Shown: positions 37,408 through 56,298 of the stretch, one piece after another
Layout of the letters: the number at the start of each line of letters is the position of its first letter
How positions within the stretch are numbered: position 1 is the first letter of the stretch
Translations under genes and position numbers: made by a program
DNA from: a virus
IMG/VR virus record: IMGVR_UViG_3300050821_007139
Location: 1-64,000 of that record
Direction: 5' to 3' (one strand)
DNA length: 64,000 bases
Notes under the pieces: model-generated
Seen by the model: the letters and a program-made list of their open reading frames with translations, nothing else
Told to the model about the DNA's origin: nothing
Databases searched by the model: none

Positions 37408-38523
37408 ATGAGCATAATTACAACACAATCTATGCATTCTTATCTTAAATACCCAAGCGCCGACAATATCTTAGTTGATATGCATGGGAATGATTTTCCT
37501 TGGCGAGTGCCCCAGCTTTGCGCTTCTTATAATTGGCCTACAAATGCGCCAGGTGGCGGAGTTATAGGTATAGTCGAATTAGGAGGCGCCTGGATTTGGA
37601 ATGATATGGGGAAGTTCTTCACCGGCTTAAATCAGCCGGTTCCTAAAATTGGCGATTTCTCTGTTGATGGAGCGATGAATAATGGAGATATCACAGACCC
37701 TGCTTCAGCAGAAGTAACGCTAGATATACAGATTGCTGGAGCATCTTATTTCGCAGCGACTGGAAAGCCAGCGATAATAAGGGTATATTGGGCCGGAAAT
37801 ACCGTCAATGCAATCTCGCAGTCTATCACGAGAGCAGCTGCTGACGGGTGTGATACGTGCTCGATATCTTGGGGCGCTGATGAGGCTAATTGGGGAAATG
37901 CTGCAGCAATGCAACTTGAAGCCGCTGCCGCTGCAGCAGTTGGAGCTGGGATGATAGTATTCGCCGCTGCCGGCGATAATGACTCTAGCGATGGCGGGCC
38001 GACTGCCGCTAATGTAGATCTTCCAGCATCGGCCCCACACGTTATTGGATGCGGAGGAACAACTAGACCGCATAGCCCTAGTGCGGTTAAACCTGAAATA
38101 GTATGGAATCAATCGCCCGGTAACGCTAATGGCGAAGGTACGGGCGGCGGATTTTCTACTATCTTTCCTGTCTCACCTTGGATGGCAGGGGCGCCGTCTG
38201 GCCCAGGCAGGATGGTCCCTGATTTAGCCGCTAATGCAGATCCAAATACTGGCTATCATGTAACTCTTGGCGGCCGAGATGTTATTTTTGGCGGCACGTC
38301 GGCAGTAGCGCCTCTATATGCCGGATTATTCGCCTCGTTCGGCCTCAAGCTTGGATTTGTCGCACCCAAACTTTGGGCGAACCAGCTAGCGTTTAATGAT
38401 ATTACCAAGGGCGACAATGGCCAGTTTCGGGCGCTTGTGGGGCCAGACGCTGTGACTGGCTTGGGATCGCCTCGAGGAGCTCGCCTATCTGATCTATTCG
38501 CGCTCCGTCTATATATGAGGTAA
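37408..38523 (+). CDS. Sedolisin/kumamolisin-type peptidase (S53), catalytic domain only
   Basis: 'EVTLD' (Glu/Asp), 'SISWG', 'AAGDND', 'GR.VPDLAANADP.TGY', 'GGTSAVAP' (Ser), 'D.VTGLGSP'. Confidence 0.92.
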   Translation: MSIITTQSMHSYLKYPSADNILVDMHGNDFPWRVPQLCASYNWPTNAPGGGVIGIVELGGAWIWNDMGKFFTGLNQPVPKIGDFSVDGAMNNGDITDPASAEVTLDIQIAGASYFAATGKPAIIRVYWAGNTVNAISQSITRAAADGCDTCSISWGADEANWGNAAAMQLEAAAAAAVGAGMIVFAAAGDNDSSDGGPTAANVDLPASAPHVIGCGGTTRPHSPSAVKPEIVWNQSPGNANGEGTGGGFSTIFPVSPWMAGAPSGPGRMVPDLAANADPNTGYHVTLGGRDVIFGGTSAVAPLYAGLFASFGLKLGFVAPKLWANQLAFNDITKGDNGQFRALVGPDAVTGLGSPRGARLSDLFALRLYMR

Positions 38524-38525: not shown

Positions 38526-38717
38526 ATGAATAAATGGGTTGATGTAGGGATTACAGCATTAACAGCATTTATTATTACAGCTGGAGGAGCATATACGACT
38601 ATTGTAACTGGAACAACTGCAAGTCCAGATACTGCTCAGATAGTGACGTGTATTGTTGCAGGAGTTATGGCGGCCGCATTAGTCGTACAGAAACATTTAG
38701 CTCCGCCGCCGCAATAA
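38526..38717 (+). CDS. Two-TM small protein, holin-like
   Basis: SD gagg; two hydrophobic helices. Confidence 0.5.
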   Translation: MNKWVDVGITALTAFIITAGGAYTTIVTGTTASPDTAQIVTCIVAGVMAAALVVQKHLAPPPQ

Positions 38718-38729: not shown

Positions 38730-39009
38730 ATTGGCGTTACACAGGGCGACGACCGTAAGGGAATATCTGCGTAGCGAGTTAAGTCTTGGCTTAGCTTCGC
38801 CCCTGGTATCCAAGTCCCTGCACTCTAAGCCCAAGGGACGGCGCACCGGCCTGGTCCTCCGGCAAGATTATTCAATCTTGGGCATTTAATTGTATATTAA
38901 CGTGCATTCTTGGTTAATATACTGGCGGCCGGAAAGAGCTGGGCAGCCATGTGTCAAATGCCAAACTTGATTGGAGCTACCTAGAGATGCACCTAGGTAG
39001 TAGCTCCAA
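38730..39009 (+). ncRNA. Structured ncRNA of unrecognised family, copy 1
   Basis: Intergenic; closing stem ttggcgttacac/gtgt-c-aaatgccaa; shares attggcgt, cgaccgtaagg, actctaagcc, ggacggc, ctggtcc with copy 2; terminal bulged hairpin. Confidence 0.75.
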
Positions 39010-39149
39010 GAGATTAAATATTTGTCTCTTTAAGCTTAGCTTTGTAAGCTTGTTTTGCAGCTTCACGAGCTTTTGCTCTACGAAGAATTTGTTTGGCTCT
39101 TTCTACTACCATCCAATGGAGGTCACCCCAAATTGTGATTAATACTCCT

Positions 39150-40031
39150 ATGAATACTCCTAGGCAAAAAATTCTAAAAGCCCAACTATTAAGTATGTCT
39201 GTCATAGCCTTATTTCTTTCCTCTTGTTCTGGATCTTTAACTGCAACACCGCCAGCACAACCTACGCCAGAGGCTATTCAGGCTTTGAATATCAGACTAT
39301 TAGCTATTTCTTCCGATCCAATAATGACTTGGCAAATAGGAAATTATTCTGTTCGGTCGGCTTGTCATGCTTATCTTAATGCTATGGCGGCGCGAAGTGC
39401 CAATATTAATCTTGCATCTGGCTCCCTTGGTCTTGCTGGGCCGGCAGCTGCAGGGTTTTTAGTAGCCGGATCAAATCCTATGGGAGCGGCTGCTGCAGGA
39501 GCTATAGCGGCTCTTGGGCAAACATTCTTGAATCTATTTAATTCTAGCGGCTCAATTCCTTATACTGCTGAAACATCTGGCATCATCCAAGCCGCCCTTG
39601 ATGCTTATGAGGGTGGAGTTAATCTTTCTCCACCCTCAAGTATTCCCCAAGCAATTTCTTATATTGATGATCTCTGGTGGCAATGCTCAGCTGGTGGATA
39701 TGCAATATTAGTTAGTAAGGCTATTAGTACGGCTAATATTGGCGTTCAGATGAATGGAATGTTTTCGTTCCGTTCACTTACACCGACAGGTCGGCCGGTG
39801 ATTACTGTAAATCCACCGCCAACTACTACAAATTCAACATTCGAAGAAATGCCACTACCGCGACCCAGATTGCACCGTAAAATAGCACCGCCACTAGCAC
39901 GGCAACAAATAGCGTCACCAGAGGCGGCCAATTTACCTGCCAATTTACCTGACGATCTTGATAAGCTGGCTCGTCTGCGTTGGCTAAAGGCAACTTGGAC
40001 TTGTGTTCGGATGTTAGATGGAACATGTTAG
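39150..40031 (+). CDS. Putative lipoprotein
   Basis: Lipobox-like 'LFLSS-C'; start uncertain (39093/39150/39196). Confidence 0.55.
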   Translation: MNTPRQKILKAQLLSMSVIALFLSSCSGSLTATPPAQPTPEAIQALNIRLLAISSDPIMTWQIGNYSVRSACHAYLNAMAARSANINLASGSLGLAGPAAAGFLVAGSNPMGAAAAGAIAALGQTFLNLFNSSGSIPYTAETSGIIQAALDAYEGGVNLSPPSSIPQAISYIDDLWWQCSAGGYAILVSKAISTANIGVQMNGMFSFRSLTPTGRPVITVNPPPTTTNSTFEEMPLPRPRLHRKIAPPLARQQIASPEAANLPANLPDDLDKLARLRWLKATWTCVRMLDGTC

Positions 40032-40058
40032 TACCATTTATTTCCTTTCCTATTGCAT

Positions 40059-40433
40059 TTATTCCCAGCTGACTTTACAAACTATCACTACGTTGTCTCC
40101 ACAAATACCGGGAGTTACAGCTGCACATGGAGATATTTGAAATACGATCGGAGCTTGACTCAAGTCGCTTGCACTGATATTTCCCCAATTTGCTGCACCG
40201 CCAGCAGTCGTTAGATCGACGCCGTAAACAATTCCGTCATCTGAGCCGACTCCATATCTCCCGGTCGCAGGGGTACTCGCTGTTCCTGGCACCGCCGTAT
40301 AAAACCAGCCGCAATCTGGATGATTTGGTCCATTTGCCGTTGATGAACCATGTAATACTGCATTACCCGATCCGGCATTAGCTACACTTGTGAGCAACAA
40401 AAATGCCGATGTAAACGCTAACAGCTTATTCAT
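40059..40433 (-). CDS. Secreted protein (distant relative of 55294 and 55930)
   Basis: SD aggaga; signal ending 'ANA'; four Cys. Confidence 0.65.
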   Translation of the reverse strand: MNKLLAFTSAFLLLTSVANAGSGNAVLHGSSTANGPNHPDCGWFYTAVPGTASTPATGRYGVGSDDGIVYGVDLTTAGGAANWGNISASDLSQAPIVFQISPCAAVTPGICGDNVVIVCKVSWE

Positions 40434-40448
40434 CTTACTTTCTCCTTT

Positions 40449-41072
40449 TTAAGGTCCTGGATAAAAGTGCAGTCCGCAACTACACTGACCCGTACACATA
40501 TTTACTAGATATGCACATGCAGGGCCAGATAACCCACTTGGATTCCCTAGCAGAAATACTCCCTCTAAAGTTCCTACAAAACTATAATGCCCTCCTCCAT
40601 CGCATATTCCTCCAGGTGATAGATTATTCAACTCTGCTCGTGGGCCGAATGATACTCCAGATACTCCTATTGCTTGTACTAGTCTTACATGCGTTCCTAA
40701 TATAGCTTGTGCTCCATTCATTGCCTTTAAATCGCAATCATTCGCGCTTAAACCCGTAAGCTTCTGCAACCCTGCACCAAATGCAGGATTTCCTATATTT
40801 GGCACACAAGGAAATCCTCTTCCTCCTGGCACTTGACTACCCATTCTTGGGTTGCACGGACCTTGAGTCTGAAATCCAACCCAAACATTGTTATGTTCCG
40901 CTACATTGTCATTGCTAAAATTGTTTAGCAATCTTCCAATTATTAATTGCGCCGTGATATCTACCACCACACCCGCAACAATATCGCTTATTGCTGGTTG
41001 CCCTGCTTTTGCTGGCCAACCATGAACCAATAACCATCCTAATATTAACGCTCCTATTCCTATTGATCTCAT
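40449..41072 (-). CDS. Secreted Cys-rich protein
   Basis: Signal ending 'AKA'; eight Cys. Confidence 0.6.
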   Translation of the reverse strand: MRSIGIGALILGWLLVHGWPAKAGQPAISDIVAGVVVDITAQLIIGRLLNNFSNDNVAEHNNVWVGFQTQGPCNPRMGSQVPGGRGFPCVPNIGNPAFGAGLQKLTGLSANDCDLKAMNGAQAILGTHVRLVQAIGVSGVSFGPRAELNNLSPGGICDGGGHYSFVGTLEGVFLLGNPSGLSGPACAYLVNMCTGQCSCGLHFYPGP

Positions 41073-41089
41073 TCCTTTTTACTCCTTCT

Positions 41090-44038
41090 TTATCCACAGC
41101 CGGTGTTATTGCCACAGTTTGGGCATGTTAGACAAGTTCCAGTTTGGTTCATTTCAGAGCCGCATTCGGGACATAAAGTTCCTGAGCGATAAGAAATTAA
41201 ATCTTCATGATTTTGATTTACATTTTCATTTTGATCTCCTATCAAATCTTTAGCAACTTGAACAAGATTAGAATTACCCAGGTCGTTACGGGCTAAATAT
41301 GTTATTCCAAGATCACGGAAGATTAGGTCCACAATGCTTGAACAAAGTTTAATCGTATCATGGCCTTGGACGATTCCGGAAGGCTCAAAGCGAGAATGTG
41401 TAAAGGCGTCTATATATTCCTCAAGTGGCACCCCGTATTGGATTCCAAGTGAAATTGCTTTTGAAAAACATTCCATTAATGCTCGCGTGGTTGAACCTTC
41501 CTTAGATAGGTCTACAAAAATCTCACCTAGTGAACCATCAGAATAATTTCCGGTATGAAGGTACAATGTCTGACCGTTGATCTTATATTTATTTGTATAT
41601 CCTCTGCGGCGTTCGGGTAAAGAAATTCTCTCGCCTCGGTAATGACCGTTAGGTTTAGTAGTAATATTCTGTAAATTTCCGTAATTCTCTTTATCTATTG
41701 ATATAGATTCTTCTGTTAATGTCCATTTGTCTTGAGATTTAGTTTTACTATAAATAGAGCTGGTATATAGTTCATTTGTTTCGCTTATGGCTTTATTAAG
41801 CAATTCTTCTTTAGCCCAAATCTCTTCTTTTGTATTTGAACTTAATGGCTGCGCTAACTTACATCCGTCTCGATAGATTGAGATTGATTTGAGGCCAAGT
41901 TTATGAGCCAATCTATAAATTTTATCTACATCTGCAACCGTAGCTTTATTTGGCATATTGACGGTTTTACTGACTCCGCCGGATAAGAACGGCTGCACAG
42001 CCGCTACCATTTTAACATGGCCTTCAGGAGAAATACAATTTTCTCCGACCGCAGTTGCGAATACGGGCCAATGTTCTTCTTTTATCCATTTTCTAATATC
42101 AAATCCGGCTTCGACTTGTTTAACGATTTGGGTAGCTTTTGTAGAATCGTAGCCTAGTTCAAATAAAGCCCCGTATACGGATTGATTAATAAATTTCATG
42201 TTACCTCCCCCGGCTAGTTTCTTGGATTTAACTAGGGCAAAATCCGGCTCTATACCTGTAGTATCGCAATCCATTAAGAGCGCTATTGTTCCAGTTGGCG
42301 CGATCAAAGTTACTTGAGCATTGCGAAAAATAATAGAATCACTTAAAAGAGTTTTCCAAACAAGATATGCTTTACTGTCTATTACTGTCATTGGAGTAAC
42401 TTGGGCTTTTCTGTAATGTTTATATATAATTTCGTGCATGAATTTACTATTTTCGCCGAATCTTAGAAATGGACCTAGTTCGCCTGCTAGTTCAGCACTA
42501 GTTTTATAAGCAATGGCAGTCATTAGAGAAGTAATTGCGCCTGCTATACTTCTTCCTTCATCGCTATCATAGGCTAAACCGTTGCGCATGATTAGTGCGC
42601 CAAGATTAGCATAACCGAGGCCCAAAGTACGGTAATTGTAACTTCCTAGAGCGATCTCCTTTGAGGGAAAACTAGCCATATAGACGCTGATTTCGAGTAC
42701 TATGGTCCATAATCTTGTTGCGTGTTCAAAAGCTTCGATATCAAAATCTTTATTGGTTTTTAAAAATTTACATAAATTTAATGAAGCCAAATTACAAGCG
42801 GTATTATCTAAGTGGAGGTATTCCCCGCACGGGTTAGATGCATTGATATCACCATCAGCCTTGCAAGTGTGCCAGGATTGAATCGTATCATGAAATTGAA
42901 CCCCTGGATCTCCGCACTCCCAAGCGGAGCTACAGATTTGATCCCATAATTCCTTTGCTTCAAGTACTTTAGTGACATGTCCTGTTGTACGTTCAGTCAG
43001 GAACCATGGTTTGTCTTCGCTAAGCGCATCGATAAAACTATCTGTAACTCGAACTGAGTTGTTAGAATTTTGGCCTGATACTGTATCTAAAGCTTCATCG
43101 GGGCTCCAAGCTTCGGTAGCTGAAAGGACCTTTGCTTTCTCTTCTTCTTTAACTTTCCAATTTATAAAATCTTCAATTTCAGGATGATCAAGATCACAAA
43201 CTCTCATTAAGGCCGCACGGCGTGTTGTTCCGCCGGATTTAATGGCGCCAGCCGCCCGATCGCCGACACGAAGGAAACTCATCATGCCGGAGCTAGTTCC
43301 GCCACCGGATAATAATTCTCCCTTGGCTCTCAACTTGCTTACATTTGTCCCTGAACCTGATCCGTATTTAAAGATCTTTGCTTCACGCAACCAAAGGTCC
43401 ATAATTCCGCCGGGATTGACTAGATTATCATCTACTGGTTGAATAAAACAAGCGTGCGGAGTTGGATATTCGTAAGAGTCCTTACATTCGACTTGATTTC
43501 CGTCCTCGTCGTTTCTCCATTGACCATTAACATTTCCGGTAATTCCATAGGCCCAATATAAGCCTGTGTTAAACCATTGTGGCGAATTGGGCGCTCCGAT
43601 TTGCTTTGCGAGCATCAAGTAAAGCTCGTCATAGAATATTTGAGCATCATCGTGATTATCTAAGATTCCTTCGCGCCAGCCCCAATAAGTCCAACAACCT
43701 GCGAGCCGATGGAAGACTTGCTTGGCGGAGGTTTCGGAACCGAAAGTTAAGTTTATATCAGGTGCTGGAATGGATGGTAGGAGCCAAATTGGCATTTCGC
43801 CATGAAGTTCTTCGTCCCCTTTTAAATACCCTGTCTTATTTGGCATTCCGGCTTTACGAAAATATTTTTGCGCTAAGATATCTGTTGCAGTTTGACTCCA
43901 ATGATCTGGGACTTCAATATCTTTCATCTCGAAGATTATATTTCCTTCGAGATCGGTTATTTGAGAGTCTACTCGTTTCCACGCGACTTGATCTTGAACT
44001 GGTGTATTGGGTAAAGAATAAAATCTCTCGAATTTCAT
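41090..44038 (-). CDS. nrdJ: Class II (adenosylcobalamin-dependent) ribonucleotide reductase with TSCPD domain and Zn ribbon
   Basis: 'PNSPQWFN', 'HACFI', 'KSGGTTRRAA', 'SNPCGEY', 'ACNLASLNL', 'IAPTGTI', 'SKTVN'; C-term CPECG..CPNCG..GCG. Confidence 0.95.
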   Translation of the reverse strand: MKFERFYSLPNTPVQDQVAWKRVDSQITDLEGNIIFEMKDIEVPDHWSQTATDILAQKYFRKAGMPNKTGYLKGDEELHGEMPIWLLPSIPAPDINLTFGSETSAKQVFHRLAGCWTYWGWREGILDNHDDAQIFYDELYLMLAKQIGAPNSPQWFNTGLYWAYGITGNVNGQWRNDEDGNQVECKDSYEYPTPHACFIQPVDDNLVNPGGIMDLWLREAKIFKYGSGSGTNVSKLRAKGELLSGGGTSSGMMSFLRVGDRAAGAIKSGGTTRRAALMRVCDLDHPEIEDFINWKVKEEEKAKVLSATEAWSPDEALDTVSGQNSNNSVRVTDSFIDALSEDKPWFLTERTTGHVTKVLEAKELWDQICSSAWECGDPGVQFHDTIQSWHTCKADGDINASNPCGEYLHLDNTACNLASLNLCKFLKTNKDFDIEAFEHATRLWTIVLEISVYMASFPSKEIALGSYNYRTLGLGYANLGALIMRNGLAYDSDEGRSIAGAITSLMTAIAYKTSAELAGELGPFLRFGENSKFMHEIIYKHYRKAQVTPMTVIDSKAYLVWKTLLSDSIIFRNAQVTLIAPTGTIALLMDCDTTGIEPDFALVKSKKLAGGGNMKFINQSVYGALFELGYDSTKATQIVKQVEAGFDIRKWIKEEHWPVFATAVGENCISPEGHVKMVAAVQPFLSGGVSKTVNMPNKATVADVDKIYRLAHKLGLKSISIYRDGCKLAQPLSSNTKEEIWAKEELLNKAISETNELYTSSIYSKTKSQDKWTLTEESISIDKENYGNLQNITTKPNGHYRGERISLPERRRGYTNKYKINGQTLYLHTGNYSDGSLGEIFVDLSKEGSTTRALMECFSKAISLGIQYGVPLEEYIDAFTHSRFEPSGIVQGHDTIKLCSSIVDLIFRDLGITYLARNDLGNSNLVQVAKDLIGDQNENVNQNHEDLISYRSGTLCPECGSEMNQTGTCLTCPNCGNNTGCG

Positions 44039-44313
44039 TAATTTAGCTCCTTTTCCCAGCTAAATGAAGGTATAATTCCACTCTCAGAGATAGCAAGTTC
44101 AGCATTTTCTGACAATAAGTGGGCAAGGGTATGCTTAGGCTTCCTTCCAGGGCGTTTGCAACGTGAGGAACCGAGTAAGATATTTAGGGCTTCTTTTTTA
44201 TTCCTTCGCCACCTTTGTGTTCGCTCAATGTGCTTCTTTGGGTCTTCATTTATCTTTGCTACTAGCCAGGTCATAATGATATTACTTTCCGAATTGCAAA
44301 TGGTGAATTGCAT
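44038..44313 (-). CDS. Hypothetical protein
   Basis: ORF abutting nrdJ start. Confidence 0.4.
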   Translation of the reverse strand: MQFTICNSESNIIMTWLVAKINEDPKKHIERTQRWRRNKKEALNILLGSSRCKRPGRKPKHTLAHLLSENAELAISESGIIPSFSWEKELN

Positions 44314-44563
44314 CCGCTGCTTCTGATAATGCGTGTTTTGTTTCGATAGAATGAGGTAATATATCGCGAAGGCGGAGAACTATTAATTCTGCTTGATCCC
44401 TCATTTGTTCCACAGTTTTGGGCGGAGTAAAATGGGCCTTCCAAAGTGGATGGTTTGGATGCCATGCTAAACCACATACTTCTTGAGATAAGGGTTTTAT
44501 AGATTTTGGCATATAGAAATTTTCTTTAGCTTTAATATGGTGATACATAAGTAGTATTGCCAT
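44282..44563 (-). CDS. Hypothetical protein
   Basis: ORF; true start likely the internal Met (MPKSIKP). Confidence 0.5.
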   Translation of the reverse strand: MAILLMYHHIKAKENFYMPKSIKPLSQEVCGLAWHPNHPLWKAHFTPPKTVEQMRDQAELIVLRLRDILPHSIETKHALSEAADAIHHLQFGK

Positions 44564-44774
44564 GTGGGTTTAATACTATATATCCACCATTATTATCGGG
44601 AAATGCGTAAGAAGTTCCTTTAGAATTTTGGATTATATAATTTGGTGGGTAAGCTGGAGCGATAGTTCTATTTGGCATTTGAAGTGGGTAGAACTGTAAA
44701 GGAGGAATTTGTGTATATTGCGCATGAGCAGAAAAAGAAATAAATACACAAGCTAAAATTATAATTGTTTTCAT
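44532..44774 (-). CDS. Small secreted protein
   Basis: Signal MKTIIILACVFISFSAHA. Confidence 0.6.
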   Translation of the reverse strand: MKTIIILACVFISFSAHAQYTQIPPLQFYPLQMPNRTIAPAYPPNYIIQNSKGTSYAFPDNNGGYIVLNPHGNTTYVSPY

Positions 44775-44776
44775 AG

Positions 44777-45148
44777 TTAAAACTTCTTTCCATGTTCGGA
44801 TTGTCTGTATTCTAAATCATGATCGATTCTGTCTTTATTGTATTTCATCTTAGCTTCAATTGCATGTTCAAGATCAATGTTTAATCGTCCTGCTAGATCG
44901 AAGATACGAATACATGCGTCTGCAAGTTCTACATTAATACCAGGTAGATATGGTATATGATCATCCATTGTTCCTTTGCGAAAAGCTTCCATAGCTTCGC
45001 TAATCTCAGAATGGATTAGGGCGAATTTTGTTCCAATTATATACTTGCCGACATTCTCAGGTGTTAGATTATCACTCCCAAAATCATTCCACCAGCCTCG
45101 ATCATAACTTTCTTCAAAGCACTTCTCAACTAAATCATTTAAGTGCAT
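44777..45148 (-). CDS. MazG-like nucleotide pyrophosphohydrolase
   Basis: 'ALIHSEISEAMEA.RK', 'VELADACIRIFDL', 'KM.YN..R'. Confidence 0.88.
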   Translation of the reverse strand: MHLNDLVEKCFEESYDRGWWNDFGSDNLTPENVGKYIIGTKFALIHSEISEAMEAFRKGTMDDHIPYLPGINVELADACIRIFDLAGRLNIDLEHAIEAKMKYNKDRIDHDLEYRQSEHGKKF

Positions 45149-45173
45149 TTTATAAATCTCCTATATAAACTCT

Positions 45174-45398
45174 TTATTTATTTAAATGATTCGTCGCGCC
45201 TGAATCGGTGCTACACATTTCAGCTGCAGAACCAGTTAGAGAAAATTTCTCAGCATAAGGCCGAGCGAATTTGACATATATTGGTTCTCGATTTGCTTCA
45301 CTTAAATTATCTTCAAAGTGCATATCCCCTGGCCAGGGAATTAGTTCGTAGATTTTTTTATTATTATCAATTTCTCTATTATTAGCGGTAAGTGGCAT
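45174..45398 (-). CDS. Hypothetical protein
   Basis: SD aaagga; immediately downstream of ncRNA copy 2. Confidence 0.5.
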   Translation of the reverse strand: MPLTANNREIDNNKKIYELIPWPGDMHFEDNLSEANREPIYVKFARPYAEKFSLTGSAAEMCSTDSGATNHLNK

Positions 45399-45423
45399 AG
45401 GTTTAATCTTTCCTTTACTTTAG

Positions 45424-45670
45424 TTGGGTGTTGTCCTAAGATACACACGGTACTTTAGGACACCCAAAGGTTGTGGTGATTTACACTAGCGCGGGCCGAG
45501 AAATAATTAATCTTGAAAGGATAACTTTCTCTCGGCTTTGCTAAGGGGGACCAGACCTTCCTGCCGTCCTGAGGCTTAGAGTTAACCGGGCTTGAATGAG
45601 AGGATAAGAGAATTGATCCATCTTACGCGCACTCCTTTCCTTACGGTCGGGGGCCGGCAATCACGCCAAT
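45424..45670 (-). ncRNA. Structured ncRNA of unrecognised family, copy 2
   Basis: Reverse complement carries the same ordered motifs as 38730-39009, closing stem gtgattgc/gtaaatcac, and terminal ttgg...ccaa bulged hairpin. Confidence 0.75.
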
Positions 45671-45675: not shown

Positions 45676-46056
45676 CTACGTTGTTTTTAGCCGTATGGCT
45701 TCAAGGATCGGTAAATTCGCTTCAGTTGGGACATAGATCGTCTCGCCTTTACGTTCTTCCATCATCTTAATCCATTGCCATCTCAGATAGAGATCGTGCT
45801 GTTTTAGGTTGTCACCAATTATCTCTATCTGCTTAGCAACTGCTTCTGCCTCAATGATAGCTGCGGCCTTATTCAAATCAGCAGCCTTTAGGCGCCCGTT
45901 GGCATGGGCGCCTTGAATCTGTTGCTCGTTCTGAGCCCGTGCAAGGTCCGCAAGTCCCTTCTGGTGGGCGAACCATACGCGATAGCGCGGAAATCCCCAA
46001 AGCCAGATAACTAAAATTGCCAAGATTATTATGGTGGGTAAAATTAAATTGTCCAT
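45676..46056 (-). CDS. Membrane-anchored coiled-coil protein (SPFH C-terminus-like)
   Basis: N-terminal TM; 'YLRWQWI', 'IYVPTEANLPILEA'. Confidence 0.6.
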   Translation of the reverse strand: MDNLILPTIIILAILVIWLWGFPRYRVWFAHQKGLADLARAQNEQQIQGAHANGRLKAADLNKAAAIIEAEAVAKQIEIIGDNLKQHDLYLRWQWIKMMEERKGETIYVPTEANLPILEAIRLKTT

Positions 46057-47542: not shown

Positions 47543-48751
47543 TTATACCCTTGTATGTTCGTTCATTGGCCTCGGTATCCAATGCGGTGATAGAGTATTA
47601 AATTTGGGATCTCGGCGTATCATTCCTGATCTTTCGGCAGTTTCTATGATTCGCGGTATCTGAGGACTAGGAACCCGATCTTTTAAGAATGTCCAAAGAA
47701 ACTTATCTTCAATTGCGATTCTTTGTGTTGGAACATGACGGTTGTATTCGGTGTATATGAACTGCCATAGGTCATGGATTAGCTGCGAATCACTTCTTTG
47801 GCCCATTGCACGGAATACATCGGGCATAACGCTCTCGGCTTCACTTAACCATTCATGGGCGCGCTCATAATCTTCAATATCAATATAAAGATTTCTCCCT
47901 GCACTAACGCTTGATATCATCGCAAGTTTCATTATCTGAACGCCACGGCGTGAGGCGTAATGTTTTAATCGCGAATGATCCGGGGCGCCTGGCTGATCTG
48001 CATCTAGCCAATTTATATGCGCCTCTTGTGCTTCTAGGCTCCACTCAAACTCCCCACCTAAGTTAAACATAAATTCTAGGCTTTTAACCAATCTTTCATT
48101 ATCTCTTTCACTGCGCTTCTTAAAGTAATTTTTATTGTCAAACTTAGTTGCATCGCTATAAATGAAGATTAACCGAGCTGTAAAACCTTGGCCCCAAGCA
48201 GTCTCAGGAAATAAATCTCCCATAAAGTCCGGCGTGATCCCGCATAACATATTAAAGTTTGGTTTATCTAAGTTTCGATCTTCTACTGTAGCTCGGGGCT
48301 CGGAATAAGTATCAGGATTATCGTAGATATGACTTAGGATGCTTAAAAATTCCATGTCCCATTTAGGAAAGAAGATGCCAAATTCTTCTACTGGAGCTAC
48401 TAATGAGCTAAATATGTGCAAATCGCCGGTTCCGTTTAAGAATGCTCTTGTGCTGGTTTCAAATTCGGTTATAAAACTTGCGTGGGTGACGTTATCACTA
48501 GCGATGTATAATCCGTTTACTTTTGTCCATAATTTTCGGGTTTCTTTGATAATGATTGATTTTCCTGTAGCTGGGGCGCCGACTAAGGACACCCAAAGAT
48601 TGGGACATAATGGGGCTGTACTAGCTTCGGTATAGGTATAAACGCGGCGTTGAAGCACTCCTGCTATAGTAACTAATCCGGCCCATAGGCGAAATATTGG
48701 AGGGGAGCGAATACCTTCTGTGCTTTGCATCCATGAGTCGATCCAGTCCAA
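47543..48751 (-). CDS. DUF3987-type P-loop ATPase (putative replicative helicase)
   Basis: Walker A 'GAPATGKS', 'EEFG.F', 'L..IYD', 'GF.ARLIFIY'. Confidence 0.75.
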   Translation of the reverse strand: MDWIDSWMQSTEGIRSPPIFRLWAGLVTIAGVLQRRVYTYTEASTAPLCPNLWVSLVGAPATGKSIIIKETRKLWTKVNGLYIASDNVTHASFITEFETSTRAFLNGTGDLHIFSSLVAPVEEFGIFFPKWDMEFLSILSHIYDNPDTYSEPRATVEDRNLDKPNFNMLCGITPDFMGDLFPETAWGQGFTARLIFIYSDATKFDNKNYFKKRSERDNERLVKSLEFMFNLGGEFEWSLEAQEAHINWLDADQPGAPDHSRLKHYASRRGVQIMKLAMISSVSAGRNLYIDIEDYERAHEWLSEAESVMPDVFRAMGQRSDSQLIHDLWQFIYTEYNRHVPTQRIAIEDKFLWTFLKDRVPSPQIPRIIETAERSGMIRRDPKFNTLSPHWIPRPMNEHTRV

Positions 48752-48768
48752 GATAAGAGGTCCATACT

Positions 48769-49116
48769 CTATGAGATTTTATATTCTCGACAATCAAGTT
48801 TGCAATCGCCTTCTTTTAATGGACAATAACTACAAGTGTATCCTTGCGGATTTGGGTTTACTTTTTCAAAATAAGTGAATTTATCATTATCTATTTTAGA
48901 TAACCAGCTTGGCGGACCCCCTTGTACTTCGCGTGCCCAGATCATTCTTCTATATAGTATAGTAGTCGCTATCTCGTACCATTCGTATATATTATATAAT
49001 TCTCCAGTGGGAGAATAATTGAAAATATCTTCTGGACTAGTTGGATCAGGGTGACCATTTTTACCTTTGAGGTATTTGGATTCAAATATAACTTTACACA
49101 TGTCTAATAGAGTCAT
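48769..49116 (-). CDS. Hypothetical protein
   Basis: ORF with C-terminal Cys cluster. Confidence 0.5.
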   Translation of the reverse strand: MTLLDMCKVIFESKYLKGKNGHPDPTSPEDIFNYSPTGELYNIYEWYEIATTILYRRMIWAREVQGGPPSWLSKIDNDKFTYFEKVNPNPQGYTCSYCPLKEGDCKLDCREYKIS

Positions 49117-49232
49117 ATTAGTTTTCCAAAATTGATTTCTCTAAGTTTCTTTTAAGGCTTCTATAAGCGTTTGGGCGTGCACCGCGACGGCCGAGTACAG
49201 CATCGTCGCGGCCAGCACGATTGGCCGTAGTC

Positions 49233-49460
49233 TCATCGGCTACGCCTCACGATCCGGATGCCACGGGGACCGAATTGCATCGTCTGGATTTCGCCACCAA
49301 CGAGTATGGCGCACTCGCCTGTTTCTTCATCAGCAGAGACGATCAACCCAGAGACCTCAGCGTAGCTGTCCGTCCGCACGAGCTTCCAGCGGGCCTTGTC
49401 CTCAGCGCTGTGCCACGTTTCGAGCTTCATCGTGGCTATCCAGTTGTCGATGGCGATCAT
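49233..49460 (-). CDS. Small protein paralogous to 58451-58648
   Basis: Shared 'KAR.K..RTDSY..V.G.I..ADE.TGE....V.GE.Q...FGP..IRIV'. Confidence 0.7.
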   Translation of the reverse strand: MIAIDNWIATMKLETWHSAEDKARWKLVRTDSYAEVSGLIVSADEETGECAILVGGEIQTMQFGPRGIRIVRRSR

Positions 49461-49699
49461 GAATTCATTCCCTTGTGCGGCGTCGGTTGTTTTCTATTTT
49501 CATCTGATAATTGCTTTATAAGATTTGCAAGAGTCAGCGCATCTGTTGTTGTCATTACCATTCCTGTATGGGGCGTTTCGTTTCCATCAGGAGTTGTGTC
49601 GCAAAATGTTATTCTCGTAATGGTAGGGCTTACGCTAACATAAAACCTGTTCGCAAAAGCCGACGGTACGAATCCCACAAACTCTTTGCTTTCACTCAT
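49457..49699 (-). CDS. Hypothetical protein
   Basis: 'FANRF.VS.....RI.F' pattern; ATGA coupling. Confidence 0.5.
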   Translation of the reverse strand: MSESKEFVGFVPSAFANRFYVSVSPTITRITFCDTTPDGNETPHTGMVMTTTDALTLANLIKQLSDENRKQPTPHKGMNS

Positions 49700-49985
49700 C
49701 GGAATATTCCTTTGGTGAATATGGACATGCTATCTCTTCGTCTAACTTCTTACCTTCAAACCAATCTTGATAAGTGATTGGTTTTCCTGATTTGTAATCG
49801 ATATTTTCTTGTTTGCACCAAGTTACGAATCCAGCGCAGATTTGATTAGCGCTGTGACAGCTCCAATTAATGTTTTCATTATCTTTGAGAGACATTATCT
49901 CATATGGGTCTGGGACGCAACCATAGTTTATGGCGCGCTCGGAAGTTTCAGAGCCCATAAATGGGCATGAGGAGCAAGCGGTCAT
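49692..49985 (-). CDS. Cys-rich hypothetical protein
   Basis: 'C..CPF...CH....ICAG'. Confidence 0.55.
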   Translation of the reverse strand: MTACSSCPFMGSETSERAINYGCVPDPYEIMSLKDNENINWSCHSANQICAGFVTWCKQENIDYKSGKPITYQDWFEGKKLDEEIACPYSPKEYSDE

Positions 49986-51547
49986 GCGACTAGCTCCAAG
50001 TTGTTATTTACTCTGGTTCTCTTATCGCCACTTGTGGTCCATTTGATTAATCCGTCGGGATGATCCTGATTTGCATTGCCCCAACTCCAGCCTACTTTAG
50101 CTTCACTAGGAACAGTAAATCTCCGGCCTCGATAAGATAACGGAACATCTAAATGTTTTTGCATTTCGCTTATTATTTTAGCTTCATTAGTGTCAAATTC
50201 AAGTCTTTGCCCATAAACTGCGTCGTGTAATTGCGCTATAAGTTCTACGGGATGATTGCTATTTGGCCCCATGTATTTCCACATGCGCCATAAACCAAGA
50301 TTAAGGCGCCTTGCTGTCGGAGCCTGGGACATGAAGGCAATGCCTTCTTTAATTGTATCATTTGAGTCTGCGCGGCCAAAAAAATCACGCCTTCCTCCGA
50401 AAGCATCTATTAAATAATGCTCGCGTTGAAGTTGTCCGGCTACCCAAGTAAAGAATTGATTTAAGCAGGGATAAGTAGCAAACATTCTTTCTTGGGCAGA
50501 TTTAATGAGCTTATTTGGTACTCGAATTTGCCGGGCAATTTCTAAATAGCCGCCGAATTTTTCCGTTCCATGACGGACGCGTTTGGCAACTTCGCGATAG
50601 CTGTGTTGGCGGTAATATAATTGATCTGCAATTTTGCGATCATGTTTCAGATCCCCATTCCAATCTAGATCGTTTTCCCAAATCTCGCGCGCTAAGATAG
50701 TATGAGGGTCGCCGGATTCGGCTGAGTCTAAGTAGCTTGAGTCGCCAAATAATACCCAACATAGCCATCCGGTTTCTCTTGTTTCGGCTTGTTCTAAATC
50801 AGCGCCAAATAGCTTCTTATCTTTATTTGCTATGAACATATATCTTAATTCTTCTTCGATATTTTGAAAATTTCTCCCGGTTCCGGTTATTGATTTTGAT
50901 GAACTAAAGCGCGATGTTGTTGTCATAGCGGGATTGAAACTGGTACGCATTCGCCAATCGGAATCAATTTCGGTTTCTAAAACTTCAAGTTGTCCTTCAT
51001 TGTCGCGATAAGATAGAATCGCAGCTATTATTGGCCTTGCTATAAAATAACCTTCGAGTTTTTCTAAGATTTCCCTTTCCATTGGTTTTGTTAATTTGCC
51101 TTCTTTTTTTCTTATTATTGGTGGGATTTGCAGTATATCGTAGAAGAAAGTTGCTAATTGTGAGGTTGAGTTTGGGTTTAAGGTTTTTGGTTTCGGGTGG
51201 TCATTGGTGGCTTTGGTCGGCGAGCGTAAGTCACAAATGGCGCTGACGTAGCAATCAATTATATCGCTTAATCGTTCTAAGCGTTTTCTTAACTTAGCTA
51301 TCCCATCTTCTCTTGCCCAAGGGTCAATTTTCCAGCCGCGTAAGTTCATCTCAATTGCGGGTGCCTGTAAAGCGCGCTCAAAGTCGTAGATTAGCTTTGG
51401 GCCTTGAAGCTCGATAGGAGAATTGTGACTTGGAAGCAGGGTTTTTAATTCGTTTAAAACCTCACAAGTCAACATGCTATCCATGGCATTATAGACTTGG
51501 ATCGATCCGCAATCAGTATCAAGCTCGTGTGCGGCTATTAATGGCAT
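49982..51547 (-). CDS. Family A DNA polymerase, polymerase subunit (carries ExoIII motif only)
   Basis: 'YNAMD' ExoIII; 'TSRFSSS', 'NFQNI', motif A 'ADLEQAE', motif B 'R..AKR.RHG', motif C 'QLHDA'. Confidence 0.92.
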   Translation of the reverse strand: MPLIAAHELDTDCGSIQVYNAMDSMLTCEVLNELKTLLPSHNSPIELQGPKLIYDFERALQAPAIEMNLRGWKIDPWAREDGIAKLRKRLERLSDIIDCYVSAICDLRSPTKATNDHPKPKTLNPNSTSQLATFFYDILQIPPIIRKKEGKLTKPMEREILEKLEGYFIARPIIAAILSYRDNEGQLEVLETEIDSDWRMRTSFNPAMTTTSRFSSSKSITGTGRNFQNIEEELRYMFIANKDKKLFGADLEQAETRETGWLCWVLFGDSSYLDSAESGDPHTILAREIWENDLDWNGDLKHDRKIADQLYYRQHSYREVAKRVRHGTEKFGGYLEIARQIRVPNKLIKSAQERMFATYPCLNQFFTWVAGQLQREHYLIDAFGGRRDFFGRADSNDTIKEGIAFMSQAPTARRLNLGLWRMWKYMGPNSNHPVELIAQLHDAVYGQRLEFDTNEAKIISEMQKHLDVPLSYRGRRFTVPSEAKVGWSWGNANQDHPDGLIKWTTSGDKRTRVNNNLELVA

Positions 51548-51624
51548 TATTTATGTTCTTCAGTAAGAAAAATTATTATAACTATTATGCATACAATGAT
51601 AAATAGTGACCATGCTGGGTTCAT

Positions 51625-52221
51625 TTAAATTTCTATATCAGAGCCAGATTCGTTGTTATAAGAATAATCAGCCCAATCGAACCAATCAAAGATGCGTTTT
51701 TGTTTAGCGCGCTCGTCCCAAATAAACCATGCGTAACAAGTATTGCTTGGCGCTTCAGGGCCGGTCCAATTGTATCGGTGCATCATAGGCAATCGGCGTG
51801 AAGATATCCAAAGCCGTGCTGGTGGATGTTTGCGAAAGAAGGGGAGTCTATTACAGCTTTCTAAGAAATTGGTTCTTAATAAGAACGCTACATAAGGAAC
51901 TTCACTGATTGCTTTCTTGGCGAATTCGACTGCGAGCTTATAGGGTGGATTTGTTATTATACCCTCCCATGACATTTTAACTGCTAGGAAAAAATCTACC
52001 ATTGAAGACCCATATCCATAATCCATAATATCTGAACTAAAAACATCAAAATTATTATCTTTTAAAACTTTACTTATTGCTCCGTCTCCACAAGCGGGTT
52101 CCCAAATGTAATGAGGAATAAATTCTTTTTCTATATTAATTAGTGATATTGTAGCCTCTGGTGGCGTGAAATATGCATCTAAACCTCGGTCTTCAAAATT
52201 ATGCGAGCTTTGAATTAGCAT
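51625..52221 (-). CDS. DNA amino-methyltransferase
   Basis: 'D.YFTP', 'WEPACGDG', 'ITNPPY', 'YAWFIW'. Confidence 0.85.
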   Translation of the reverse strand: MLIQSSHNFEDRGLDAYFTPPEATISLINIEKEFIPHYIWEPACGDGAISKVLKDNNFDVFSSDIMDYGYGSSMVDFFLAVKMSWEGIITNPPYKLAVEFAKKAISEVPYVAFLLRTNFLESCNRLPFFRKHPPARLWISSRRLPMMHRYNWTGPEAPSNTCYAWFIWDERAKQKRIFDWFDWADYSYNNESGSDIEI

Positions 52222-52233
52222 AACTTTATCTTT

Positions 52234-52560
52234 TTAACGTATATTTCGTTCTGTAAACGGGATGATTAAGTTCTTTTCAAATAATCTTTCTTTTGCTTTT
52301 AACATCCCTGGCGACCATCCTAAGTCAATATAAAATGCTATTAATTCGGCACTTGACCACCAAGCATATCCAGATTCTATCCCCATTTGCCTTTGTTCCG
52401 GTTTATTATCATCTAAAAATAATGGATATAATAGATGTGATCCAAATGGAGCCTCTCCGCGTTTTAAGCTATCTAATGCAGCTTCATAAGCATAAGCTTT
52501 ATTTAAGGCTATATTGCCAGCAAAAGGAGATTCTATAATAACTCTACGACGTAATTGCAT
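52234..52560 (-). CDS. Nucleoside deoxyribosyltransferase-like fold protein
   Basis: 'VIIESPFAG', 'RGEAPFGSHLLY', 'Y.DLG.S.GM'. Confidence 0.65.
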   Translation of the reverse strand: MQLRRRVIIESPFAGNIALNKAYAYEAALDSLKRGEAPFGSHLLYPLFLDDNKPEQRQMGIESGYAWWSSAELIAFYIDLGWSPGMLKAKERLFEKNLIIPFTERNIR

Positions 52561-52562
52561 TT

Positions 52563-53708
52563 TTATTCCTCGCGTTTTAAACTCTCGCCATGAGCAAGCA
52601 TAGACTTCCAGGCAATTTCGTTGCTGTATATCGAAGCCAAGTAACCCAGCCCGCGCCGCTTTTCTGGCAACGTGGCGTGTTGTAAAATCATTGGATCATC
52701 GGCGCAATTATTAACTATGATACCTATTCGTAGAAAATGACTTATATCGAAGATGCCATTTTGAAAGGCTTTTGGAACTGGAGAGCGCAATGCGCCTATC
52801 AGTAATTCCCATGCTTGAATTTCCTCTTCTAAACTTTTCCAATAATTAAGCTCGGGATCTTCTCGGGTCATGAAAGGAATTACAAGCGATTCGTAAGGAC
52901 TTCTGGCAAAACTTACCATAGATATAAGTTCGGATAAGATCCGCCGCATTGGAACTGGCATATTTTTGATTTCAGACCGGGAGAACAGGGCATATCCGGT
53001 TTCGATGTCGATTGTATAAGATTCAGCAGGCTGAGCTAGCCAAGTTTTGATTTCACTTAGGGTTATCTTTTCTTTCGTTTTTGGATCTTCACAAGTTATC
53101 CAGCGTTTGATTCGTCTTATTTCGGGAAAGTTTGATTCGTAGGCGACCTTTTGTAGATCTGAAATAATATCTGTTCTTAGTTGTTCTTGGCGCAGTGCTG
53201 CAGGATGGAATGTTGGAAAGACCTTTTTATTAAATCTCAAGCTTAGCTTAGGCGTGCCTCGAATTGAGCTTATATTAGTTATGCCTAGTAACGCCCAACA
53301 GGCATAGTTTCCTAAAGCGACGATTACATTGGGATTATGATTCTCTATTTCTTTCCATAAGTTCTCGATATGATAGCGATATTCGGATTTGACATAAAAG
53401 ATGCGGTTATTGATCTTGATTGGGGGTAAACTTGTGTCTATATTTCCTTGTGTAGCGAAGAATAGTTCGGTCTTATCGCCTTCCGGGTGTTCGTTGAAGA
53501 CATTTGTTACTGCAATTTGGTGCTCGTCTTTTAGCCATTTCCAATGAGAGATCATGTCTTCAAGGCTTGGATAAGGTACGCGCAGTTCAGGCGCAAGATT
53601 GGAGCTTCCTAGCATCTTTGCTAATTCTCGGCCTGACCAGCCGACTAATGGATGACCGACTAGGGCTTCATTTTTTCCTAAACTTTCGGCTACAAGAACT
53701 ACTTTCAT
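52563..53708 (-). CDS. Uracil-DNA-glycosylase-like domain fused to N-half of 3'-5' exonuclease (N-terminal subunit of split DNA polymerase)
   Basis: 'LVAESLG.NE...G.PLVG.SG', 'PNVIVALG..A', 'PTFHPA'; ExoI 'DIETG', ExoII 'QNG.FD', 'D.MI..H'. Confidence 0.85.
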   Translation of the reverse strand: MKVVLVAESLGKNEALVGHPLVGWSGRELAKMLGSSNLAPELRVPYPSLEDMISHWKWLKDEHQIAVTNVFNEHPEGDKTELFFATQGNIDTSLPPIKINNRIFYVKSEYRYHIENLWKEIENHNPNVIVALGNYACWALLGITNISSIRGTPKLSLRFNKKVFPTFHPAALRQEQLRTDIISDLQKVAYESNFPEIRRIKRWITCEDPKTKEKITLSEIKTWLAQPAESYTIDIETGYALFSRSEIKNMPVPMRRILSELISMVSFARSPYESLVIPFMTREDPELNYWKSLEEEIQAWELLIGALRSPVPKAFQNGIFDISHFLRIGIIVNNCADDPMILQHATLPEKRRGLGYLASIYSNEIAWKSMLAHGESLKREE

Positions 53709-55090
53709 CTTACAGCTTCACTAGCTTTTCTTTTAGATCTTTCTTTTAGAGTTAATTCGTTAGCTTTGGCTGCGTATTCTTCATTAATTTCAATTCCCAG
53801 TACACTTCGGGCGCCTAGGCTTTCGGCAGCTCGAATTGCACTTCCGCTGCCGGAACATATATCTAAAAAATCTGTAGCGTTATCGACTAGCATTGATAGA
53901 AAATGTTTCAGCATTGATTCTGATTTTTGATTAGGAACGATTGGAGATGTAACTGCAGGGGCCGCGTAACAGTCTGTCATTTTTTTAAATAAGGCTCGGT
54001 CGCCCCGGGTAACTAATAGACAACTTTCATAGCTTGGCTTAGGATGCAGTCCACGCACACCTGGAGCGCCGTTATTTGTGTCTGATTTGAACCAAATTAA
54101 AGGATAATCGGTAAGAAAGAATTGAGAATTGATAAATTTATTTATGATTGGCAGGGAATCTCCTTCACGATCTAACCAAAACATTATATGACAACTGTAA
54201 CTAGCAAAGTTGTCTATATTATCAATTAATGAATTTGGCAAAGCATAATACGAATTTTCATCATGTGTAAAATCACAATGAATCAGGTTAAATTTATCTC
54301 CGGAATAACTCTCGCTCCAAGATATAAAATCGGTAGTTATAATTGGAGGAGTAGCTTTATCCAAATTCGGCTTTGGTTTTACATCTGTAATAATAGTTTC
54401 AGTTTTTGAAATTGGCATTAATTGTTCATGATTTGTGTCAGTATAGATATCATGTGTATCTGAATAACTAACTAATGTTGGAAGGACAGAATCGGCTAGT
54501 TTTGTTACTTGATCCTTATTTAAGGGGGCGCGTAGTAGTTCTTCGACTAAATCTGCGGCTTTTTTTTCCTCCTTTCGTTGTAAGATGCCTAGGGCTTGCG
54601 TAAAGTTATCAGCGTTAGATAATAGTGGTGAGTCTAATTCTTTAAAGACATTTAATATGTTTCCGATTTGTTGCGGGGTGTAATTTAAAGCTTCAGCTGT
54701 TTTGGAGTTTGTCCAAGAGATATCTTTGCTTGTTTTATTTTTATGAAAATCTCCTATGGCGCTGACATGATCCTGCCAAGATAAGTTTTCGCGCTTGATA
54801 TTTTCTTCAAGTTCGATAATTTGAAGCTCGTCTGGATCTAAGGTATCGTAATAACGTATGGGAACTTGGCTTAAGTTTAGTTCTAATGCACAAAGTAATC
54901 GTCTGTGTCCGGCGACTAAGGTTAGTTTGTCTAATCGCTCTAGCTTTTCTCTATGAACAATTATTGGGTTCCAGATTCCTCTGGATCTTATGGAATCTAT
55001 TAAACCTTCTGTTGTCGCATTCTTTCGTTGGCGCTCGCCTATATTTATCTCGCCTGGATCAACAAAGTCGATTTCATTTGTTATTGGCAT
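53705..55090 (-). CDS. ParB N-terminal domain fused to degenerate DNA methyltransferase
   Basis: 'L.DSI..RGIWNPI.V', 'LVAGHRRL', 'ELEEN.KRE.L'; C-term 'LDICSGSGS'. Confidence 0.82.
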   Translation of the reverse strand: MPITNEIDFVDPGEINIGERQRKNATTEGLIDSIRSRGIWNPIIVHREKLERLDKLTLVAGHRRLLCALELNLSQVPIRYYDTLDPDELQIIELEENIKRENLSWQDHVSAIGDFHKNKTSKDISWTNSKTAEALNYTPQQIGNILNVFKELDSPLLSNADNFTQALGILQRKEEKKAADLVEELLRAPLNKDQVTKLADSVLPTLVSYSDTHDIYTDTNHEQLMPISKTETIITDVKPKPNLDKATPPIITTDFISWSESYSGDKFNLIHCDFTHDENSYYALPNSLIDNIDNFASYSCHIMFWLDREGDSLPIINKFINSQFFLTDYPLIWFKSDTNNGAPGVRGLHPKPSYESCLLVTRGDRALFKKMTDCYAAPAVTSPIVPNQKSESMLKHFLSMLVDNATDFLDICSGSGSAIRAAESLGARSVLGIEINEEYAAKANELTLKERSKRKASEAVR

Positions 55091-55278: not shown

Positions 55279-55293
55279 AAGGAAATTAACTTA

Positions 55294-55674: not shown

Positions 55675-55685
55675 AGATTATCTCC

Positions 55686-56280: not shown

Positions 56281-56298
56281 GATTTGATTCCTAGATTA

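Follow-up and report, generated by a model that had tools for sequence, protein, structure and literature searches.

Four diverged copies of an intercistronic module in two soil phages very probably form a new family of structured RNA

The first 64 kb of the 91,468-bp virus record IMGVR_UViG_3300050821_007139 (this whole stretch is the window, and the record is G000 below) contain two copies of a folded RNA module, a third copy lies further along the same genome, and a fourth is found in G001, a second soil phage of 71,049 bp. Taken together, the four copies very probably constitute one family of structured RNA modules of 200-290 nucleotides (nt) that has not been described before, and the presence of the fourth copy in a distantly related soil phage indicates that the RNA is real and conserved. 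The family is new and is known from two genomes and four full copies, and the kind to which it belongs, the orphan structured RNAs of phages, is itself already known. A first-pass annotation of the window had described copies 1 and 2 as an unrecognised structured RNA with conserved unpaired islands and with helices that keep pairing despite sequence change, and this description holds, as no model in Rfam 15 matches and the helices covary. The islands shared by these two copies were all found on the strands and at the positions it had assigned, namely ATTGGCGT (38730 / 45670), CGACCGTAAGG (38750-60 / 45649-39) and ACTCTAAGCC (38822-31 / 45582-73), together with GGACGGC, GGYCTGGTCC and GTGTMAA, and gene calls agree that each locus lies between genes and is read in the same direction as those genes. 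Both of the copies it counted are real, but G000 holds three, the third lying outside the window; likewise there are copies in both transcription arms as proposed, but not one in each, for the + arm holds copies 1 and 3.

The homology of the copies is documented by a covariance model, R1, that was built with copy 1 alone as its seed and with a hand-drawn structure of the 5' domain. R1 scores its own seed at 140 bits and finds copy 2 over its full length with 36.9 bits (E 2e-8). The use of such a model to look for homologs had been suggested in the first-pass annotation, and it yielded the G001 copy (31.9 bits) and copy 3 (28.8 bits), both full length, with nothing else better than E 0.2 (E 0.3 in the window). 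A motif scan of the whole G000 genome returns exactly three copies, of which copies 1 and 2 are mutually inverted and 6.4 kb apart. Overall pairwise identity among the four is 46-63%. Two soil metagenome runs from different studies contain the window stretch, and the pieces listed are identical to the window, so these runs supply no natural variation for testing the pairing.

The four sequences support three helices, P2, P3 and P4, of a 5' domain of about 100 nt. In an alignment of copies 1-3 and the G001 copy (A6), standard pairs occupy 96.1% of 77 cells compared with 40-56% when the partners are slid by 1-3 columns, both sides have changed in 16 of the 23 pairs, and none of 500 shuffles reaches any of the pairing measures; A6 had been fitted to the structure, and the pair counts lean in its favor. 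RNAalifold, given A6, independently recovers P2, P3 and P4. The alignment contains 10 G.U cells and 2 A.C or C.A cells, an imbalance that identifies the sense strand as the folding strand. P2 encloses island B, P3, P4 and the strand CCAA(G/A) that joins P3 to P2 on the 3' side. It was the second stem of the first-pass annotation, and its covariation recurs in the two further homologs: reading CAGGG/CCCUG, GCCGG/CCGGU, GAGGG/CCCUC and GAGAAG/CUUCUC across the family, it is 100% paired with four of five pairs changed on both sides. All five base pairs of P3 have likewise changed on both sides, as have 7 of 11 in the variable hairpin P4. Set against this turnover in the helices, 18 of 56 unpaired columns are invariant. 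Island B has the form CG(A/U)CCGUAAGG, in which CCGUAAGG is the same in all four sequences, and the island CUCU(A/G)(A/U)GCCC comes after P2.

The module is not coding, since islands A and B are separated by 12 nt in copy 1 and by 13 nt in every other copy and reading frames are not kept. A conserved small open reading frame (ORF) was considered and rejected, as the 52-codon frame of copy 1 (38731-38889) stops within three codons in copy 2. Two strings that resemble Shine-Dalgarno sequences were seen inside the modules. One, UAAGGAGGUG, lies in the 5' strand of P4 in the G001 copy (positions 8601-8612 of L139, the stretch of G001 with the RNA copy) and is not conserved in the other copies; the other, AAGGAAAGGAG, is in copy 2 (window 45642-45628, - strand) and is followed 11 nt later by the start of a 26-codon ORF, neither of which is conserved.

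Long-range pairing fares differently from the helices of the 5' domain. The RNA had been called probably pseudoknotted, and neither candidate pseudoknot is upheld by the new homologs. The pairing of CCCU with AGGG, replaced by UCCU and AGGA in copy 2, amounts to one change between two paralogs; the corresponding bases of G001 form the 3' strand of P3, and copy 3 is without an AGGR partner. The second candidate, GACC with GGUC, was thought to be invariant, and G001 and copy 3 read GUCC in island B. When GACC is paired with GGNC the variable position is A-U in copy 2, U-A in G001 and A.C in copy 1, with no partner in copy 3, and the A/U change in island B is equally well explained by a third pair (U.G) that lengthens the GUAA-capped hairpin. 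The proposed closing stem is not confirmed by the new homologs either; it does not keep one register throughout the family, and the longer stems drawn for copies 1 and 2 are in different registers. By our own reading island A can pair in every copy 12-22 nt before the terminal hairpin, where UGGCG faces AGCCA, CGCUA, CGCUA and CGCGA (18 of 20 cells) with one-sided changes, and RNAalifold offers a rival in which GGC pairs with a GCC in the CUCUAAGCCC island, both strands being invariant. Island A may pair either with this GCC or with MGCNA near the 3' end.

Downstream of the 5' domain, copies 1 and 2 and the G001 copy have in common the segment GGACGGC-N5-GGNCUGGUCC-YCC, a GCAA(A)G motif and (G/U)UGUMAA. 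Copy 3 is without all of these and has two small hairpins in place of the GGACGGC/GGNCUGGUCC subdomain, which is accordingly dispensable for the family; what copy 3 retains, islands A and B, P2-P4, CUCUGUGCCC and the terminal hairpin, is the minimal form. The first-pass annotation drew a UUGG...CCAA hairpin with a 3' bulge at the end of copies 1 and 2, and every one of the four copies has this terminal hairpin. Its lower stem of 6-8 bp starts with UUGG/CCAA, its upper stem has 6-9 bp, the bulge on the 3' strand measures 3, 3, 3 and 2 nt, and the predicted stabilities lie between -18.6 and -22.2 kcal/mol (z -3.1 to -4.7). Within a genome the lower stems are similar (UUGGGUG occurs twice in G000, UUGGUACCCC twice in G001), and the two genomes have different ones. 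The loops and bulges of the four copies show no sequence relationship. A geometric scan found one extra hairpin of the same design in G001 (65,142-65,178, + strand) at another intercistronic site, a 315-nt gap behind a 556-amino acid (aa) ORF. It has the bulged form UUGGUACCCC...GGGG..UACCAA and stands 58 nt after UUUGGCGU (L252:5077-5178, a stretch equivalent to G001:65,077-65,178). No 5' domain was detected upstream of it, the best score with the covariance model R2 being 8 bits; the hairpin may belong to a truncated copy, or it may be used there on its own. Small AU-rich hairpins were also seen behind two of the modules. Copy 1 is followed after 20 nt by AAGCUUA...UAAGCUU and then GUUUUG (window 39029-39055, + strand), and a similar hairpin follows copy 3 (about 1222-1245 of L239, the stretch 77300-79600 of the G000 genome). 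These hairpins could be weak terminators, and a terminator scan did not flag them.

Comparison with known RNA classes gave no assignment. A cmscan of the whole window with Rfam 15 at gathering thresholds returned 0 matches, and relaxed searches of the four loci (E<=10 for copies 1 and 2, E<=5 for copy 3 and the G001 copy) returned only noise, namely ACAT at 14.5 bits (gathering threshold 37) and snoRNA or snRNA models at 13-18 bits (gathering thresholds 40-100). This check against Rfam, which the first-pass annotation had recommended, consequently ended without a confident match at any of the four loci, and the loose likeness to raiA noted there is rejected on the same ground. ARAGORN found 0 tRNA or tmRNA genes in the window, L239 or L139. 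A remembered likeness to group I introns (CCAAGUCC..UAAG) has no counterpart among Rfam intron models, the flanking genes are complete and separately started, and in copies 1-3 the upstream ORF ends before island A begins. Retron msr-msd and other reverse transcriptase-associated RNAs were set aside since neither G000 nor G001 has a match to RVT_1. Derivatives of IS200/IS605 (omega or reRNA, PATE, REP) were dismissed as well, there being no PF07282 (TnpB) or PF01797 (Y1 transposase) in either phage and the copies being as diverged as stated above. The GGNCUGGUCC segment recalls what we take to be the GGCUGGUCCGA strand of the Ro-binding helix of Y RNAs, which is a lead only. An assignment to Y RNA or YrlA is rejected, given that G000 has no TROVE/Ro gene, Rfam gives no match and the segment with CUGGUCC is absent from copy 3. 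Strings that look like parts of the ZTP and guanidine-III riboswitches have no Rfam match, and the resemblance of CUCUAAG to an 11-nt tetraloop receptor fails because the UAUGG half is absent. A stimulator of stop-codon read-through is not indicated, as the frames are not conserved and close after at most about 20 codons. An invertible segment bounded by the inverted copies was also rejected, the copies being too diverged and covarying like RNA. The same divergence argues against a spreading repeat, and exact island patterns detect none elsewhere in the viral, metagenome and 185,579-species genome collections.

Wider searches leave the family confined to G000 and G001. Copies 1 and 2 have no blastn match among 50,697 GenBank phages, and the full island pattern has 0 exact matches in the viral scan. 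The shorter pattern CTCTAAGCC..GGACGGC gave 12 matches, all due to chance, GGACGGC..GGNCTGGTCC gave more than 119 of which one is real (L139), and two stricter exact patterns returned L139 plus one chance match only. The exact-pattern scan of metagenomes returned 16 chance matches and L221, a metagenome record in which G001 turns up again, and the genome scan of 185,579 species returned 5 chance matches and no real member. Among 48 whole viral records with a neighbouring gene in common, R2 identified G001 only; two weak matches (16-18 bits) were rejected as they are antisense within long ORFs and lack P2. R2 provides a handle for recruiting further members as soil viromes grow.

The two phages that carry the family are related in organization and remote in sequence. 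G000, which has direct terminal repeats of 97 bp, shares with G001 a two-arm gene layout and a collinear replication module (window 47543-60014, - strand; G001:23,778-33,604) that includes a DUF3987 primase-helicase, PolA, a UDG-exonuclease fusion and a PD-(D/E)XK nuclease. Shared ORFs have 23-61% protein identity, about 40% for the five largest, and the tail regions are unrelated. The blastn comparison of the two genomes yields one marginal match of 42 nt (E about 1e-3), unrelated to any copy, and no other significant nucleotide match around any copy. The nearest cultured relative is Caulobacter phage Kuura, with 30% identity in the primase-helicase.

Each of the four modules is placed between two co-directional genes and has their orientation (Table 1). 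Island A begins 5-17 nt past a stop codon in copies 1-3; the upstream ORF of the G001 copy, as listed, stops inside island B. On the other side, the ribosome-binding site of the downstream gene starts at or just after the CCAA of the hairpin in three of four copies, and the likely start of the gene behind the G001 copy (TTG 8808, with AAGAGGG) begins at the CCAA itself. The phrog_11227 gene ahead of copy 2 is complete, as its homologs match residues 1-125 of 126. Copy 1 is intercistronic and not at the very end of its arm, since a further ORF of the + strand follows it. The + arm of G000 extends over 58 kb (from 73.3 kb via the terminal repeat to 40.0 kb) and the - arm over 32 kb (72.2 to 40.06 kb), the two converging at 40.04 kb, with copies in both; copy 3 is 5 kb into the + arm. 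A promoter scan around the copies remained at background level, with neither a promoter-like nor a terminator-like excess, and the upstream flanks, which are coding, show no visible shared motif. The G001 module stands between a minor-tail gene and the gene for a J-like tail protein. At the same junction the two tail genes of one relative overlap and the site is empty (L246:3959-3962), and another relative has an ORF of about 58 aa in the gap (L245:2034-2209), by eye an apparent helix-turn-helix protein. The junction being empty or filled by an ORF in relatives, the G001 module occupies a variable accessory slot.

Table 1. Positions of the modules, of their parts and of adjoining genes (window coordinates unless another stretch is named)
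Feature	Position	Strand	Remarks
Copy 1, whole module	38730..39009	+	~280 nt; seed of R1; minimum free energy z -2.9
Copy 1, island A (AUUGGCGU)	38730..38737	+	UGGCG invariant in 4/4 homologs; precedes P2
Copy 1, P2 5' strand CAGGG	38742..38746	+	Pairs with 38816-38820 (CCCUG)
Copy 1, island B (CGACCGUAAGG)	38750..38760	+	CC/GG mini-hairpin capped by a GUAA tetraloop
Copy 1, P3 around P4	38763..38809	+	P3, 38763-67 with 38805-09; P4 hairpin, 38774-38800
Copy 1, CCAAG junction, P2 3' strand and island ACUCUAAGCCC	38810..38832	+	GCC invariant in 4/4
Copy 1, GGACGGC-N5-GGYCUGGUCC-YCC segment, candidate hairpin P5	38836..38860	+	In copies 1, 2 and G001; not in copy 3
Copy 1, variable 3' region	38861..38970	+	Three predicted hairpins; tentative structure
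Copy 1, candidate closing strands AGCCA and AUGCCAA	38945-49; 38958-64	+	Island GUGUCAA at 38951-57
Copy 1, terminal bulged hairpin	38971..39009	+	UUGG...CCAA base; 3-nt 3' bulge; -19.4 kcal/mol, z -4.7
Copy 2, whole module	45424..45670	-	~247 nt; R1 match
Copy 2, 5' domain	45569..45670	-	Island A 45670-63; P2 45658-54 with 45589-85; island B 45649-39; island ACUCUAAGCC 45582-73
Copy 2, terminal bulged hairpin	45424..45467	-	UUGGGU.../...ACCCAA; 3-nt 3' bulge; -18.6 kcal/mol, z -3.4
Copy 3, whole module	G000 genome ~78,325-78,524 = L239:1026-1225	+	Outside the window; shortest (~200 nt); R1 match
G001 copy, whole module	L139:8564-8795 = G001:14249-14478		IMG/VR pattern scan and R1 match
Gene upstream of copy 1	38526..38717	+	63 aa; stop 12 nt before island A; no family match
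Gene downstream of copy 1	39151..40031	+	ORF opens 39093, likely ATG 39151; about 290-310 aa
Gene upstream of copy 2	45676..46056	-	126 aa, phrog_11227; stop 5 nt before island A
Gene downstream of copy 2	45174..45398	-	74 aa; own AAGGAAAG ribosome-binding site and ATG; starts 25 nt past the hairpin

As to function, we favor, with a probability of roughly 0.4, the possibility that the module is a cis-acting element on the operon transcript, involved in antitermination, processing or translation. Several features lead us to this preference: the placement is intercistronic and sense only, there is no promoter of its own, each arm has one or more copies, a core kept across phages is joined to a genome-specific hairpin beside the downstream start, and RNA-only precedents exist. 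The sense intercistronic placement without a conserved upstream motif by itself favors a cis role weakly. The modules, having no promoter of their own, would be made within the operon transcript, and their cis action would be exerted either on this transcript or on the polymerase that synthesizes it. The core kept across phages would contact a host component that is itself conserved, for which RNA polymerase, a Nus-type factor, a nuclease and the ribosome are candidates, and the terminal hairpin would be the output, serving as a processing or stabilizing end, as a conditional block, or as a mask over the ribosome-binding site. Such an element would be similar in kind to the RNA antiterminators put, EAR and conAn2, or to an intercistronic processing signal.

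A number of observations weigh against this preference. Copies 1 and 2 are 1.3 kb and 5.4 kb from the ends of their arms, leaving little to antiterminate, and the terminator scan predicted no clear or significant terminators downstream of the copies. The downstream genes are functionally unrelated (a lipoprotein-like ORF, the 74-aa ORF, an unknown ORF and the J-like tail protein), and so do not form a common regulon. Since the loops and bulges of the terminal hairpins are not conserved, a sequence-specific protein site there is doubtful, and at 13-16 bp the hairpins are shorter than is usual for classical RNase III sites. The analysis identified neither an N-like protein nor any other partner, with no search made for a ConAn1-like one. 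None of the sequencing runs listed with the stretch is an RNA run, and the pair counts come from four sequences in an alignment fitted to the structure.

The evidence can also be read in terms of a stable RNA that acts in trans, a tentative second possibility in which a 200-290-nt sponge, decoy or anti-defence RNA would be excised from the operon transcript, with its 3' end protected by the hairpin, and would titrate, by way of its invariant loops, a protein of the host or of the phage. The large number of invariant unpaired nucleotides, together with the GNRA-capped arm, suggests a compact fold shown to a partner, the accessory ('moron'-type) slot of the G001 module between tail genes is in keeping with such a role, and three paralogs could raise dosage over the stages of infection. 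One copy would do for this purpose, however, and yet three highly diverged copies are kept; in addition the scans found neither a promoter of its own nor a canonical terminator, and no partner was identified, G000 having no Ro/TROVE gene despite the CUGGUCC string and Rfam giving no match to Y RNA. A DNA-level origin, by contrast, would make the RNA functionless and the module a selfish or structural element, for example a miniature inverted-repeat transposable element, an IS200/IS605 derivative, or a single-stranded DNA signal such as a priming site. The insertion-type slot in G001, the occurrence of the module in two phages whose sequences around the copies otherwise lack significant nucleotide matches, the TTGG and CCAA at its ends, and the inverted arrangement of copies 1 and 2 at a distance of 6.4 kb are all compatible with this view. 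We nevertheless judge it improbable, because identity of 46-63% with replaced subdomains and invariant islands speaks for purifying selection on the fold and not for recent transposition. Moreover, neither phage has a Y1 transposase, TnpB or reverse transcriptase, no target-site duplication was seen, the exact-pattern scans of viral, metagenome and genome collections turned up no copies elsewhere of the sort a spreading repeat would leave, and the GNRA tetraloop and G.U pairs are RNA features.

Two other alternatives assign an activity to the conserved core itself. The module may be a catalytic RNA of a new type, self-cleaving or with some other activity, that would process the polycistronic transcript in the manner of the small self-cleaving ribozymes of some phage operons. 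Joining strands that form an invariant core, peripheral helices that vary freely around it, the minimal copy 3 that dispenses with a whole subdomain, and the intercistronic sense placement fit this idea, which we still regard as unlikely. At the E values given above there is no Rfam ribozyme match, no cleavage site can be inferred, the module is far larger than known small self-cleavers, and with its neighbours complete and separately started it is not an intron. A riboswitch-like sensor, in which the 5' domain would bind a small molecule (e.g., a nucleotide-derived signal) and switch the terminal hairpin for the downstream gene, would account for the aptamer-plus-platform layout of conserved 5' domain, variable linker and hairpin beside the downstream ribosome-binding site, and the two alternative partners of island A could be the switch. 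The downstream genes have nothing in common, however, the hairpins are very stable with no U-runs behind them, the next start is 140 nt from copy 1, and Rfam shows no resemblance to a known class, so that we give a sensor little credence. A broader proposition, that these modules are large functional RNAs of a new class whose active core, either a self-processing ribozyme or a sensor of a small molecule such as a host- or defence-derived nucleotide signal, cuts or gates phage operon transcripts, seems to us rather unlikely; if a ribozyme or ligand sensor were the correct answer the finding would weigh far more.

The preference for a cis-acting element is informed by systems in which an RNA acts on the transcript that contains it. 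The put antiterminators are about 70 nt with one per early operon, and putL and putR of HK022 are two diverged paralogs with shared sequence and fold (PMC9378689). In lambda nut sites a linear box that is conserved stands together with a hairpin that is phage-specific (PMC2800207). The modules resemble put and nut in that copies occur in both oppositely oriented arms, all in the sense direction. In contrast to put, which has two stem-loops just downstream of early promoters, they are 200-290 nt long with a three-helix core, and they differ from put and nut in lying deep in the arms, two of them near the ends, with no sequence or Rfam relation and an activity that here is a candidate only. The conAn2 regions are 260-600 bp and intergenic between two operon genes (PMC8191782), a size comparable to that of the present modules, and both EAR and conAn2 of pLS20 are structured RNAs between genes of long operons that act only in cis. 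EAR and conAn2, however, come from Gram-positive chromosomes or plasmids and lie near the operon start, conAn2 acts together with the protein ConAn1, and the Rfam EAR model does not match the modules.

Among phages themselves, intercistronic RNase III hairpins of T7, bulged or internally looped, occur in the early and late operons, and cleavage leaves a protective 3' hairpin on the upstream mRNA. The T7 sites are stand-alone hairpins of about two helical turns, whereas the modules place a hairpin of 13-16 bp behind a conserved folded domain of 150-240 nt. The orphan 'ornate' RNAs and candidate structured RNAs of phages (Fremin et al. 2023, PMC10690425; raiA, ROOL, GOLLD) are similarly conserved and covarying, came to light through comparative genomics with no function assigned to them, and often reside in phage or prophage DNA. 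Unlike these classes, the modules match none in Rfam 15, are known from two genomes only, are multi-copy in one of them and are strictly intercistronic. Few RNA-only devices are known inside phage operons (nut, put, RNase III sites and a handful of small ribozymes), and a large structured module with a core kept across phages of about 40% identity and three diverged copies would add a regulatory or processing layer that is new for soil phages. The shortest copy, at 200 nt, is a defined and synthesizable object that can be tested directly.

Relatives of the genes that flank the G000 modules have only that one gene in common with G000. A gene for a peptidase of the S53/kumamolisin type adjoins copy 1 (window 37408-38523, + strand) and has thousands of homologs, the best of which, on a 2.7-kb contig, shows 85% identity.

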